Shown here in pieces: positions 100 to 48,361 of a stretch of DNA of 64,000 bases. The first letter of the stretch is position 1. Every line of letters begins with the position of its first letter. This DNA comes from Kondoa subrosea. Lineage: Eukaryota. Under the pieces are notes generated by a model. That model made no database searches, was not told the origin of the DNA, and worked only from the letters and a program-made list of their open reading frames with translations. Both the position numbers and the translations under genes were made by a program. The stretch lies in NCBI GenBank assembly GCA_039545335.1, contig BCIN01000005.1, positions 1 through 64,000 of the forward strand, in the 5' to 3' direction.

Positions 100-2342
100 G
101 CAAGTCTACCTCAAAGATCCGACTGAAAAACATCTTCTTCATATTCTCGCTCTCCCAAAGGTTGGCCTGGCACCTCACTCTGATGTCGGTCGATTCCGAT
201 CGTTTGAGAAGCGGCTGCGAAACTATCCCCGCGTCAATTGGCCTGAGCCTGATGCTAAATCTGCTGCCCGAGAAGCTGCTACCTTTGCTCGACAAGTCAT
301 GTCATCGATAGAGAAAGGTCGCATCAGCAAGGCTGGGCGCATCTTCACTAGTGTTACTGGACTTGCTCCTGCTACACAAGAGACGGTCGAGAAACTTCGC
401 TTGCTGCACCCTGAAGGACCCACTGGACCTTTCACCTCAACATCTCGTCCTCGTGGTCCATCTCCTACGATCAAGCTCAAGCTTGACATCCTTATAAAGG
501 AAACAAAGAAGATTGCAAAGGATGTAGCACCTGGTATATCTGGTTGGACGATGCCGCTTCTGGACCTGGTTCTAGTCGAAGGGAGTCCGTTCGAGGAATT
601 CTACTACACCCTGGCAAAGTCGATTGCGAATGGTGCAGCTCCAGGTCGAGATATCCTAGTTGGGTCACGTCTGACAGCAGGTGCAAAGGAAGATGGTGGA
701 GTTCGTCCTCTGGCAACACCGGAACTCTTCTATCGTGGATCAGTTAAAGGCATTCTCAAAACTGCTCAAAAGGATTCTCACACATTGCCAACTCAATTCG
801 GACTTGGCAAGTCTGGTGGTGTTGAACCTATTCTTCGCTACATTGAGCGTGCTATTGAGGATTCACTTACGGGCATCAAGCACTCAATTATGATCGAACT
901 TGATCTGAAGAACGCCTTTAATCAAATTTGCCGCAAACACATGGCTGAAGCAGTGGCCAAGTATGCACCTGAATTACTTCCAATGGCGACATGGGCATAC
1001 GATAATGAATCTGATCTGTTCTTCTGCTTGGAAGATGGGACTATTGAAATTATCAAGTCACGTCAAGGTGTGCGTCAAGGTGATACACTTGGCAACCTGC
1101 TCTTCTCGATTGCATATCGACCAGTGTTGGAAGATCTTGTTCGAAGGCTCAATGAAGGAGAAACGAATCAGTTCAATCTTGNNNNNNNNNNNNNNNNNNN
1201 NNNNNNNNNNNNNNNNNNNNNNNNNNNNNNNNNNNNNNNNNNNNNNNNNNNNNNNNNNNNNNNNNNNNNNNNNNNNNNNNNNNNNNNNNNNNNNNNNNNN
1301 NNNNNNNNNNNNNNNNNNNNNNNNNNNNNNNNNNNNNNNNNNNNNNNNNNNNNNNNNNNNNNNNNNNNNNNNNNNNNNNNNNNNNNNNNNNNNNNNNNNN
1401 NNNNNNNNNNNNNNNNNNNNNNNNNNNNNNNNNNNNNNNNNNNNNNNNNNNNNNNNNNNNNNNNNNNNNNNNNNNNNNNNNNNNNNNNNNNNNNNNNNNN
1501 NNNNNNNNNNNNNNNNCAAGCTCTTACCTCAACTCAGCTCATCTGAACTCGTTCAATACGTCGACAACCACTCCTCAATCTCTTCACAGTGGCTTCATGC
1601 CATCCCAAACAACTCCTACAAAACGCTGTCGAAGAGAGAAATTGCANTTGGTTTGACACACCGAACGCTCATACGAGGTCACAACGACGTCTGCAAGTAC
1701 TGCTGCCGTCCAAACGTCATTGGACATGATGAAGTCTGTGCTCAACGACAGAATATGCGAATCTTCCGCCATGAGAAGGCAAAGATTACGATCAAGTACC
1801 ACGTCGAAACAATAGAGGGCACAACAGTCAAACCTGAACCTTCTATACCTGGTCGAAGAGATAGAACTGATCTACGCATTCGCATAGCTGGACCTGGCTC
1901 GTTCCGTCAAGAAGTTGGAGACTATGATATCAAGTTCACTTCTGTTCATTCGCAACGCTTTCCTCCTGCTCCGACCACTCAAGACCCTGACCTCTTTGCT
2001 TCAACTGAAAAACGTATTTCACATTACTTGTCTGGAATTGAAGCGGAGAAGAATCGTCACTACTGCAGTCTCGTTAAGAATCCCTTCCACCCTATCATAT
2101 TCACCTCATCTGGAACTCCTTCACCTACCTCAAAAGAAGTTCTTGCTCATTGGCAAGATCTCATGGATCCGTATGTATACAAATCTTTAATTCTCGATCT
2201 CTCTATCAATCTGTTACGTGCTCGGTCTCGCTGTTTTGTTCTCTGAAGTAGAAAGGGAACGCTGAAATAGACAATTTGCTTGTAGGTAGTACAGAACTTG
2301 TAAGCTAGCTTATTCATAGAACGACCATTGCAAACGAAAATT
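100..2342 (+). mobile_element. Non-LTR retrotransposon, RT + CCHC + restriction-like endonuclease (CRE/Cnl1/MoTeR-like), probably 5'-truncated
   Basis: RT motifs GGVRPLA, QFGLG..GGVE, ELDLKNAFN and GVRQGDTLGNLLF. After the N gap: SSQWL, CKYC...HDEVC zinc knuckle, RHE, RTDLRI..YDIK, EAEKNRHY and FHPIIFTSSG, which match an RLE domain. Stop at 2244-2246. The YxDD region lies in the gap. Confidence 0.9.
1182..1516. other. Assembly gap (N run) inside the retrotransposon
   Basis: Continuous N run, plus one isolated N at 1647. Confidence 1.
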
Positions 2343-2570
2343 AGCACGCGCCCTCTAGGAGGACTCGCACAGTAGAGTGCTATTATGCGATATGGCAGGA
2401 GAATCTTCAGCCCCAGTCACCGAAGTTCCTGGAACGCCGAATTCACCGCCGAAACGAATGAAAGTGGGTATAGACGTTGTGAGGGATTCCAACCCGACCG
2501 CGCTCGACAGACGTTTGTTCAGCAATTTGTAATTGTTACATGGGAACTCCTTCAGCCCTAAACCTAAAAT

Positions 2571-2722
2571 GGGATTGTGGCCGAGCGGTCTAAGGCGCTG
2601 GTCTTAAGATGCAATTTTATTTGCCAACCAGTATGGAAACATGCGTATGTTTTGTCCATTCTTCTCAATGCAACATAGGCTGACGCCCTTAATCTAGATG
2701 GGTTCGAACCCCATCGATCTCA
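2571..2722 (+). tRNA. tRNA-Leu(UAA) with a 17-nt canonical intron (2609-2625) and a 53-nt GT-AG insertion (2645-2697)
   Basis: Acceptor GGGATTG/CGATCTC, D-arm GCCGAGCGGTCTAAGGC, anticodon stem CTGGT/ACCAG with CT-TAA-G, long variable arm TATG-GAAA-CATG, T-arm ATGGG-TTCGAAC-CCCAT and discriminator A73. Confidence 0.92.
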
Positions 2723-2737
2723 TGGGCGTGTTGGTTC

Positions 2738-2747
2738 TTTTTTTTTT
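2738..2747 (+). terminator. RNA polymerase III oligo(dT) terminator of tRNA-Leu
   Basis: T10 run about 15 nt after the discriminator base. Confidence 0.8.
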
Positions 2748-3015
2748 GCCGTTGTCCTCGTGTGCAAGGGGCGTGCGGTTCATCTGTATTGTGGTCAGAG
2801 TCTGGAGACGAAGGTAGACATAAAGATCCAGGAGCAAAAGAAAGTACACTAAACGATTTACATCGTTCATGACAGTCTAGCAACGTGCATATAGCAGGCG
2901 AAAACCCAAAACCAACGCCTTCAATTTCAAAAGTACACACAGAAACGCCGCCCGGGCGTCACAAAAGGGCATCCCAGCTCTACTTTAATGCATCTATCTA
3001 AGCGTCAGCTCTGTC

Positions 3016-18357: not shown

Positions 18358-18950
18358 CATGCTCCAGAGATTAGCTTGAATAAAGCTTGGACCGAAGAGC
18401 CAAATGGAGATGCAAGAGAATCTAAGTCACTTGGACCTCATTTATGCTTGCAATGTGCTTCGAAATTCGCAACGCATCCCTTCACTTCCCTGCCCTCTTA
18501 CCTTCCGTCTCACGAATTCTGCGATGCTCTCTGGAGATGTTTGACTTGAGTTCTTTGAGAAAGCCTTCCAAATTCGACGACATCAGTTTCATTTGAGCTG
18601 ATCCGCCTTGTGTCTCGCCGCAAATGCCCAATAAATTCAATCTCAGAACAGAACAGCAAAAAAGAAGAGCCTTGACTTGTGGAAAAAGGGCTGCACAACC
18701 TGGCAAAAAAAAACAATTTCCCAACCGGGGAGTCGAACCCCGCTCTTATCGGTGAGAGCGATATATACTAGCCGATGTACTAGCTAGGAAAACGATCATG
18801 AGATGTGGATACCGAGGAGTCAGTACAAACCATCCGCATATACAGTGATCTGTAACGTAAACCTCTTTTCGCGCGAAATTTCGGCTTCGTTCACCTCCAG
18901 GCGCTTCTTCCTCTCGCACTACCACTGTAACAGGCGTTTCGTCTATCATT
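18358..18950 (-). repeat. Left arm of ~600-bp inverted repeat (partner 21820-22425)
   Basis: Near-identical reverse complement of 21820-22425. Confidence 0.95.
18718..18789 (-). tRNA. tRNA-Glu(CUC), intronless
   Basis: TCCTAGC/GTTGGGA acceptor, TATCG-CT-CTC-AC-CGATA anticodon arm, CGGGG-TTCGACT-CCCCG T-arm, then a T-run. Confidence 0.95.
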
Positions 18951-21819: not shown

Positions 21820-22425
21820 GCGATGAAAGCGAAACGCCTGTTACAGTGGTAGTGCGAGAGGAAGAAGCGCCTGGAGGTGAACGAAGCCGAAATTTCGCGC
21901 GAAAAGAGGTTTGCGCTACAGATTACTGTATATGCGAATGGTTTGTACTGGCTCCTTGATATCCACATCTCACGATCGTTTTCCTAGCTAGTACATCGGC
22001 TAGTATATATCGCTCTCACCGATAAGAGCGGGGTTCGACTCCCCGGTTGGGAAATTGTTTTTTTTTTTGCCAGGTTGTGCAGCCCTTTTTCCACAAGTCA
22101 AGGCTCTTCTTTTTTGCTGTTCTGTTCTGAGATTGAATTTATTGGGCATTTGCGGCGAGACACAAGGCGGATCAGCTCAAATGAAACTGATGTCGTCGAA
22201 TTTGGAAGGCTTTCTCAAAGAACTCAAGTCAAACATCTCCAGAGAGCATCGCAGAATTCGTGAGACGGAAGGTAGGGCAGAGGGCAGGGAAGTGAAGGGA
22301 TGCGTTGCGAATTTCGAAGCACATTGCAAGCATAAATGAGGTCCAAGTGACTTTCCAAGTGACTTAGATGTCTTGCGTCTCGGCTAGTCGGTCCAAGCTT
22401 TCTTCAAGCTAATCTCTGCAGCATG
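21820..22425 (+). repeat. Right arm of ~600-bp inverted repeat (partner 18358-18950)
   Basis: Reverse complement of the left arm. It carries a small CCAAGTGACTT duplication near the outer end. Confidence 0.95.
21982..22053 (+). tRNA. tRNA-Glu(CUC), intronless
   Basis: Identical to the 18718-18789 copy, with a T11 terminator after it. Confidence 0.95.
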
Positions 22426-46387: not shown

Positions 46388-48361
46388 TCAATCTTCGTCA
46401 TCCTGTATATGCCATTTTAGTCAAGCCTCGAGAGCGGCATACTTCAAACGGACCGAGTCGTCGTAGAACTCGTCGTCGTCATCCTGTTCACAAGGCCAAT
46501 CGACAATCAGTATCAACCTGATTACGATCGAGCTATGCGAACCTCGTTCAAAGCATCCGAAATCTGAGCGAAATCCACTTTGTATCGCAAAAGACCACCA
46601 ATTCCACCGAACCCTGTGCATACAGGACTGACAGTATGAGACAATACTCATGGGTCGTACTCTTGACGCACCTCTGACGAATTGAGATCCCTCTTGTGAC
46701 TTGTTGGTAACGAATTCCAAAGCAGCACCAAACTCTTTATAATTCTCCGCCATCCATTCCAGAAGCGGTTGTGGATCTTTAGCCTGTTCCATCTCCAAAC
46801 CAGTCACTTTATCCAAAAACTTGGCTTGATCTTTTTCGCTCAATGCAGCAATACCAGCAGCTTGTTTGGATCCATCATCAGCTTTACTTGCGTTGGAGGC
46901 AGTAGGTGGTGGTGCAGCTGTGTGGATGATGACTTCTTTGCCTTCAGAGTTTCGCAGTACTCGACGAGTCACATCCAGATCTTCCCAAACGATCAAGGTT
47001 TCCACAGCACCCATTTCTAAACCTCGCAATGTATCATCAACACCGAAACAATATTTGCCAGTATCGGTTGAAATTTCGTCAAAGTATTTCTGAATCAATC
47101 TGTACGTACAAGAAGAAGGCACAAATCAATATTTACTCTGATTAGAGGAACTCTGACGCACTTCTTCTCTTGGATGAACTTGACGTTTGCTAAAGCGTCA
47201 CCAGCCAATTCAATAGCTTGATTGAAACCATTTTCTCCACCATAAGAAACATCCACAATCTTCATGATTTTAGCCTGCAATCTTCCATCCAACATATCGG
47301 ATTGAGATAATTCGGTCTTGAAATCAGCGCTACCAGCCATGACGATACCAACAACGTTGACTTTATCGTCGGTAATGAAATGTTGAACGGCGAATTCAGC
47401 AACTTTTCGGACATAGTTGTGTCTCTTCTCTTCACGAAGACGAGCGAAACGTAAAGCGGATTGACCACCTCGACCGTGCTTCTTTGGCAGATCGACAGTG
47501 AACTGTATCACAAACCCGTTTGTAATCAACGAAAGTTGATGACATCAGGCAATCGTAATACCTTGTGCAAGATCTCTCGAGTGTTACCAGCCACAGTGCC
47601 GAACAAAGTACCGTTACCGTCCATGATGATGAATCCAAACTTGGAATCGCTCTCGAGTAAATCCGCTAGAGCTTCAGTGTGAAACTTGTTGTCGCACAAG
47701 TAGAGAGAAGTGTTGATCGGCTTGAATGCTGTAAGCAGTAGAATCCTTCAATATCACTGAACGCGATTGTAAGACTCAGCTTACGTTCAAAGTCAAAATT
47801 GACTTTCTTCTCCTTCCTGTGCACAAAAATAAGTTTACTGCAATGTCGAGACATGAGACACTTACCCTTCGTCTGTCAAGATTGTACCGCAGTATACAAC
47901 GAGACCATTCGGCGGTACTCGATTGTAAAGCTTCAAGCGCTGTTGCGTGGAAGTGATAGCTGCCAAGACTGATAGACGATTGACTCGAGATTTGATGTTG
48001 GAAGCAGTTCCCAGTCTGTAGGTGCAAGAAAGAACGAGATCAACGCTGAAGCCGCGTGAAACCATCGCAAGGACTTACTCGTTCCTGTATGTACGAATAT
48101 TTACTGAGCACTACACAGCGCAACAGATATTCATCACTTACGCCAACATGTTTGTAGCTTGAGCGATTTGGGACCTCGGCGGCAGGATGAGCGAAATCTA
48201 GTGCAGCACAACGAAACAATTTGTCAATGCCCCCAGTCTTGCAACCTGTGTGAGTGGATATAACAGACCATACTAGTACCAGCACCTCTTGCTGCGTTGA
48301 GACTTCTGACGAGCTTCTTGACTTTCCATACTTGCAAATTCTGTTCAGCAATATCGGTCAT
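46388..48361 (-). CDS. SUP45: Eukaryotic release factor 1
   Basis: GTS, TASNIKS, YLCDNKF and [12 protein letters not shown] motifs. Confidence 0.96.

Follow-up and report, generated by a model that had tools for sequence, protein, structure and literature searches.

Spliceosomal introns are described from several kinds of noncoding RNA genes. The 2018 review PMC5855946, in the part of it that bears on this question, lists U6, U2, U5 and U1 snRNA genes and rRNA genes as their hosts, and tRNA genes are absent from that list; the same part describes U6 of S. pombe, a Pol III transcript, as having its intron removed by the spliceosome, and credits U6 introns in S. pombe and many other fungi to Tani and Ohshima (1989, 1991) and Canzler (2016). 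Introns of tRNA genes are treated as endonuclease-dependent in the corresponding parts of a 2025 paper (PMC12530127), a 2026 review on non-canonical splicing (PMC13149111) and a 2026 review of tRNA genes (PMC13578239). The part of that last review drawn on here does not contain the string “spliceosom” and mentions self-splicing tRNA introns in general terms only (PMC13578239). The view conveyed by these three sources, as far as the parts concerned go, is that spliceosomal introns belong to Pol II transcripts, U6 being an exception (PMC12530127, PMC13149111, PMC13578239). Our searches of the full-text literature outside subscription journals did not turn up any tRNA gene described as having a spliceosomal intron. 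The locus described below appears to be such a case: we put the probability that its 53-nt insert is a real U2-type spliceosomal intron, carried by the pre-tRNA of a working nuclear tRNA-Leu(UAA) gene, at about 0.65.

The DNA analysed is one stretch of 64 kb (the window), which is eukaryotic and intron-rich, with genes including those for Dicer, CDC20, eRF1 and a kinase. The C-terminal exon of eRF1 shares 69-76% identity with Pucciniomycotina and 59-65% with Agaricomycotina, and the nearest named relatives of CDC20 are only 39-49% identical. CDC20 and a protein-atlas comparison gave no placement; judging by eRF1, the DNA probably comes from a Pucciniomycotina fungus of a thinly sampled group. 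The eRF1 gene (46421-48100, reverse strand) has a C-terminal exon that extends about 80 residues past the usual end of its named homologues, which align to no more than about 62% of the query, against 92% for three unnamed metagenome proteins. The features of the class II tRNA-Leu(UAA) gene, together with the two other tRNA genes of the window, are given in Table 1.

Table 1. Positions of the interrupted tRNA-Leu(UAA) gene, its parts and splice signals, and the tRNA-Glu(CUC) genes of the window.
Feature	Position	Strand	Basis or remark
tRNA-Leu(UAA) gene, class II	2571-2722	+	Sequence; Rfam RF00005, 35.3 bits (gathering 29)
Exon part 1: acceptor 5′ strand, D arm, anticodon stem 5′ strand, loop to G37	2571..2608	+	
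Anticodon TAA	2605-2607	+	Read from sequence
17-nt intron, canonical 37/38 site	2609..2625 or 2610-2626 (one-base slide)	+	Anticodon stem parse
Exon part 2: A38, anticodon stem 3′ strand (2627-2631), variable arm	2626..2644	+	All stems paired
Class II variable arm, 13 nt, C48 at end	2632-2644	+	Sequence
53-nt spliceosome-type intron (by sequence)	2645..2697	+	Between C48 and T stem
Donor GTATGT	2645-2650	+	Read directly
Branch motif GCTGAC (putative branch A 2683)	2679-2684	+	Read directly
Acceptor TAG	2695-2697	+	Read directly
3′ exon: T arm, acceptor 3′ strand (2715-2721), discriminator A (2722)	2698..2722	+	
T arm ATGGG-TTCGAAC-CCCAT	2698-2714	+	Contains B-box-like GGTTCGAACCC
Probable Pol III terminator: T10 then GCC, 15 nt 3′ of gene	2738..2747	+	Sequence
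tRNA-Glu(CUC)	18718-18789	-	47.7 bits
tRNA-Glu(CUC)	21982-22053	+	47.7 bits

Read directly, the acceptor stem of the Leu gene is GGGATTG/CGATCTC and its anticodon stem CTGGT/ACCAG, and the D arm is of the normal eukaryotic Leu type. The anticodon loop reads CTTAAG, then 17 extra bases, then A38. This intron at 37/38 was absent from the listing of the preliminary description, which had recognised the 53-nt insert between C48 and the T stem; the coordinates and motifs that it gave for the insert (GTATGT, GCTGAC and TAG) are exact. The Rfam tRNA model spans the whole gene at 35.3 bits against a cut-off of 29, taking both inserts as insertions, and the gene has the cloverleaf, the long variable arm and the score above the curated threshold of a class II Leu tRNA. 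That standard tRNA finders would miss or mis-call it was borne out by ARAGORN, which overlooked the gene at default settings and, with introns allowed, wrongly called a Leu(aag) with a 67-nt intron; after scripted removal of 2609-2625 and 2645-2697 it returned a tRNA-Leu(taa), 82 nt long and fully paired in its stems, in keeping with the earlier statement that removal of GT...AG restores the T and acceptor stems, all of whose pairs are intact. Sequences resembling the consensus of box A and box B are intact in the gene. Both tRNA-Glu(CUC) genes end in a long T run followed by GCC, like the Leu gene with its T10 run. They lie one in each arm of an inverted repeat of about 580 bp (18358-18941 and 21830-22425, 91-100% complementary in four blocks, with about 2.9 kb between the arms). 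Rfam at gathering threshold over the 64 kb reported the interrupted Leu gene only and missed both tRNA-Glu genes; they were recovered on 3.6 kb, and the miss over 64 kb is an effect of the speed filter.

The putative branch A of the insert lies 14 nt before its 3′ end. Since the bases beside the two junctions differ, the insert has a single GT..AG register, and excision in this unique register restores the tRNA product exactly. We compared the insert with the mRNA introns of the window, collected as joins of two long ORFs (each of 100 codons or more, with a combined length of 300 or more; n = 17), a set that is drawn from ORF continuity and may include a few false members. Continuity of Pfam domains backs two of them, one splitting a Palm_thioest profile (1-90 and 89-196) and the other lying between eRF1_2 and eRF1_3. 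These introns are 48-69 nt long with a median of 52, a range that includes the 53 nt of the tRNA insert; they have G at +5 in 15/17 cases and T at +6 in 13/17, end in CAG (12/17) or TAG (5/17), and have the donor GTATGT itself in 2/17. A strict CTRAY is found 12-16 nt before the end in four of the 17 and within 5-30 nt in six, so the branch motif is less diagnostic in this window. The donor, branch motif, branch-acceptor distance and length of the insert all fall within the pattern of the 17 introns, and the resemblance to protein-gene introns noted in the preliminary description thus holds.

Chance occurrence of such a segment was gauged by counting, over the window, all segments of 45-65 nt that start with GTNNGT, finish in YAG and have CTRAY 8-20 nt ahead of that finish; there are 41 in 2,685,270, real introns included. 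We estimate that a normal variable arm would remain in no more than about 16 boundary registers, and the chance of such an insert is therefore roughly 2e-4. A second copy of the insert was not found within the 64-kb window, nor was there a sign of an introner family at that scale. No significant fold was detected for the insert region (z 0.36) or for the precursor (z -0.67). Features of a self-splicing group I or group II intron are lacking as well: the insert is only 53 nt long, and an Rfam cmscan of 2300-3000 with E up to 10 returned no family except tRNA, and no ribozyme.

We also looked for relatives of the gene in metagenomes. An exact 29-base piece of its 5′ half gave 0 matches. A degenerate scan, covering Leu(UAA) genes alone, paired the Leu(UAA) D-arm/anticodon motif with a T loop 76-106 nt further on and was blind to GT, AG and branch. 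It returned 49 loci: ten with a long 37/38 intron only, 33 explained by the T loop of a neighbouring tRNA or by chance (the script's 30 plus three tandem cases reassigned by reading), one further locus, and five with a second insert. These five represent three distinct Leu(UAA) genes. L003 has 53 nt at 47/48 (GTGAGT...CTAAC...CAG); the gene found at L005, L029 and L038 has 51 nt at 53/54 in the GC-AG form (GCAAGT...CTAAC...CAG); and L027 has 47 nt at 53/54 (GTTTGT...TACTAAC...CAG). In all three, CTAAC lies 9-11 nt before the end of the insert. Each gene also contains an intron at 37/38, of 12-13 nt where the window gene has 17, and a T-rich trailer, with T6 and T8 runs directly 3′ of the L005 and L027 genes, respectively. 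With both introns removed in silico, ARAGORN called tRNA-Leu(taa) in 4/4 genes (the window gene and these three). At L005, L029, L038 and L027 the G that closes the insert rebuilds the one before TTCGAA; because GTTCGAA is rebuilt in this way, the B-box-like DNA stays whole in L005 and L027 despite the split T loop. The 300-nt flanks of the metagenome loci with a second insert contained no clear coding sequence. The same degenerate pattern gave four loci in viral contigs, all of them tandem tRNAs or long 37/38 introns, and in prokaryote genomes two chance matches and nothing relevant.

Two further observations were made among the metagenome loci. The long introns found at 37/38 only (L001, L008, L013, L014, L016, L021, L026, L042, L043, and L046) measure 47-67 nt. 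In addition, L025 is Leu(UAA)-like; its anticodon loop is followed by an insert of about 54 nt that repeats CTTAAG and is not GT-AG, and there is one mismatch in the anticodon stem and one in the T stem.

All stem pairs are intact and standard in each of the four genes (acceptor 7/7, anticodon 5/5, T 5/5), and across the four genes covariation is seen in six of the seven acceptor pairs, three of the five anticodon pairs and two of the five T pairs. Because pairs of the acceptor and T stems bring together bases from both sides of the insert, the 5′ and 3′ exons co-evolve as parts of a single tRNA. L005 and L027 have the same acceptor stem and the same insert site (53/54); their mature sequences are identical at 71 of 81 positions, with compensatory changes in three stems. 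Their inserts match at 34/51 positions, no better than unrelated pairs (32-34/53), and GY, CTAAC and CAG are kept between them despite the otherwise diverged sequence. To judge by these alignments, the pattern is what splicing of the intron would lead one to expect, and not what decay of a pseudogene would leave. Compensatory stem changes have occurred in genes that bear an insert; therefore selection acted on the interrupted gene. The preliminary description had looked to relatives for retention of the splice signals, and GT or GC, CTAAC and AG are indeed kept in the three metagenome genes with the rest of the insert diverged. Its reading of the insert as a spliceosomal intron is thereby supported at the sequence and comparative level, by termini, donor, branch, length and the restored cloverleaf.

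The window itself makes use of the codon in question: TTA accounts for 62 of 609 Leu codons in its 22 long ORFs, as had been said of it from the beginning. Under the established rules of decoding, UUA is read only by a tRNA with the anticodon UAA, and such a tRNA is needed because TTA codons are in use. When the contigs of two DNA runs from one sample were compared with 2500-2800 at 80% likeness, one contig per run matched, with no joint, partial match or difference, an agreement that is perhaps not independent since these runs may be the source of the window itself. No further contig in about 19 Mb matched the Leu gene. The unbroken contigs and the lack of a second match hint that the Leu(UAA) gene is single-copy. 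In both runs the contigs come to an end some 100 nt upstream of the gene, at the edge of a retroelement, and because they break there a repeated retroelement is taken to adjoin the gene. ORFs resembling reverse transcriptase are found at 44-2246 on the forward strand (RVT_1, 27.6 bits, just under the cut-off; N run at 1182-1516); they stop 325 nt upstream of the Leu tRNA, on the same strand, and the repeat edge is near 2470-2475. The element may be one that targets tRNA genes.

Two explanations other than a spliceosomal intron in a working tRNA gene retain some weight, though both appear unlikely to us. The first is that the copy is dead or redundant: intron-like DNA (a transposed intron, or one of introner-like kind) would have entered one of several Leu(UAA) genes and would remain unremoved, with the other copies supplying the tRNA. 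The retroelement just upstream lends it some credit, as the neighbourhood is not pristine. However, the gene is otherwise perfect, with its stems paired, its A- and B-box-like sequences intact and a T10 run like that of the tRNA-Glu genes; the insert is not repeated within the window; and an insert of the same kind occurs in three other distinct genes with compensatory stem changes, the comparison of L005 with L027 included.

The second, which we regard as no likelier than the first, accepts a real spliceosomal intron and places it in a Pol II transcript, either the gene's own or that of a host, from which RNase P and RNase Z would free the tRNA. Recruitment of the spliceosome is normally coupled to Pol II, which counts for this explanation. 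A T5 run inside the insert of L003 might halt Pol III, and the trailer of that gene offers only T4 and T5 runs; the T5 run fits Pol III read-through badly. Moreover, intron-bearing U1, U2, U5 and U3 genes in yeasts are Pol II genes in the pertinent part of the 2018 review (PMC5855946). Set against these points are the T10, T6 and T8 runs directly after the window, L005 and L027 genes, as well as the intact box A- and box B-like sequences, the latter preserved in L005 and L027 by the terminal G of the insert; in addition, no long ORF or obvious host gene overlapping 2300-3000 was found.

A non-canonical tRNA intron, cut by the tRNA splicing endonuclease and joined by a ligase or handled by some other nuclease, with GT..AG a coincidence, is decidedly improbable. 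Ectopic and multiple tRNA introns do occur in Cyanidioschyzon merolae, Chondrus and nucleomorphs, according to the parts of PMC3728597 and PMC13578239 that deal with them. We examined both possible bulge-helix-bulge (BHB) arrangements at the two junctions, over 32 registers, and neither a BHB nor a relaxed BHB was present in 4/4 genes (window, L003, L005, and L027), so that the BHB-like motif named in the preliminary description as a sign of endonuclease excision is absent. A 4-bp central helix was lacking in every one of the 32 registers in three genes, the window gene among them, whereas most shuffled versions of the window insert gain one by chance; L027 had flanking helices of 2 bp or less only. 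The second inserts lie at 48/49 (window) and at 47/48 or 53/54 (others) with no BHB, and the window insert has no significant fold; the absence of a BHB speaks against an ectopic intron of the red-alga, nucleomorph or archaeal type. Furthermore, the arrangement G[T/C]...CTRAC (9-14 nt)...AG recurs in 4/4 independent inserts, which is unexpected for endonuclease substrates. That the mature RNA keeps the insert, as an outsized variable arm or some other extension with a function, would suit the window gene and L003, where the class II variable arm has the insert at its 3′ end, but it is scarcely credible given that no stable structure is found, that the splice signals are left unexplained and that the 53/54 site in L005 and L027 would destroy the T loop.

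We return to the reading of the insert as a spliceosomal intron of a working tRNA gene. That the Leu precursor is actually spliced is our inference, as are the splicing machine, the polymerase and the sequence of events, which would run as follows. Because the internal promoter boxes are intact and a probable T10 terminator follows, the gene is probably transcribed by Pol III. The precursor would carry two introns of different kinds, one of 53 nt at 48/49 and one of 17 nt at 37/38. The spliceosome would recognise GUAUGU, the branch A of GCUGAC and UAG, and would join C48 to A49. This step would come first, because the T arm and the L-shaped body can form only after the 53 nt are removed. End processing would then become possible, acting once the L-shaped body has formed. 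The tRNA splicing endonuclease takes its measure from this body and, together with a ligase, would then remove the 17-nt intron at 37/38.

A broader proposition is that these genes belong to an unrecognised class of tRNAs in several eukaryotic lineages, in which a Leu(UAA) precursor, probably made by Pol III, needs both the spliceosome and the endonuclease and makes UUA decoding splicing-dependent, with at least three gains within seven nucleotides (47/48, 48/49, and 53/54) and possibly with the sole Leu(UAA) gene of the genome affected here; we consider the case for it evenly balanced. If true, dependence of a tRNA on the spliceosome would undo the textbook separation of intron classes and would furnish a second, independent case of spliced Pol III transcripts, and splicing capacity would become a condition for the translation of one codon. 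There would be a bearing on the origin of introns as well: the tRNA host is not part of the spliceosome, so proximity to the active site would not be the sole route of intron gain. Standard finders miss or mis-call such genes, and genomes may therefore wrongly seem to be without a Leu(UAA) tRNA.

Among known systems, the tRNA-Leu(UAA) of cyanobacteria and plastids has a group I intron, which is about 250 nt long, self-splicing, located in the anticodon loop and bacterial or organellar. The present gene resembles that case in that the same tRNA species has an interruption of non-endonuclease type (here as read from the sequence), and differs from it in the 53-nt length of the insert and the lack of a ribozyme match by Rfam in 2300-3000. 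The locus also recalls nuclear tRNA genes of Cyanidioschyzon merolae, Chondrus crispus and cryptophyte nucleomorphs, which have more than one intron, with T-arm sites included, in the relevant parts of PMC3728597 and PMC13578239. The introns of those red algae and nucleomorphs, as these parts present them, are BHB-flanked and endonuclease-dependent, whereas GT/GC-AG termini and a branch motif are found here, with no BHB.

Closer in taxonomic terms are the spliceosomal introns in noncoding genes reported, in the part of the 2018 review that covers them (PMC5855946), for U1, U2 and U5 of Rhodotorula hasegawae (= Erythrobasidium hasegawianum, Pucciniomycotina) and for rRNA genes; the eRF1 of the window is closest to Pucciniomycotina, the subphylum of that yeast. 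Unlike the Leu gene, for which Pol III is the probable polymerase, those snRNA and rRNA cases are Pol II or Pol I genes. The nearest parallel is with the U6 introns of fungi. Similar to these, the insert is about 50 nt long, has a canonical 5′ splice site, a branch and a 3′ splice site, and interrupts a small structured RNA; and like U6 introns, the inserts of the four tRNA genes are unrelated in sequence and lie at different sites in different lineages. Two differences set the tRNA apart. U6 occupies the spliceosome's catalytic centre, a fact that gave rise to the reverse-splicing explanation for its introns, and a tRNA does not; and the Leu tRNA also needs a second, protein-only pathway for its intron at 37/38. 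Spliceosomal introns in noncoding RNA genes are thus known, and a tRNA as their probable host is, relative to the literature that we found, new.
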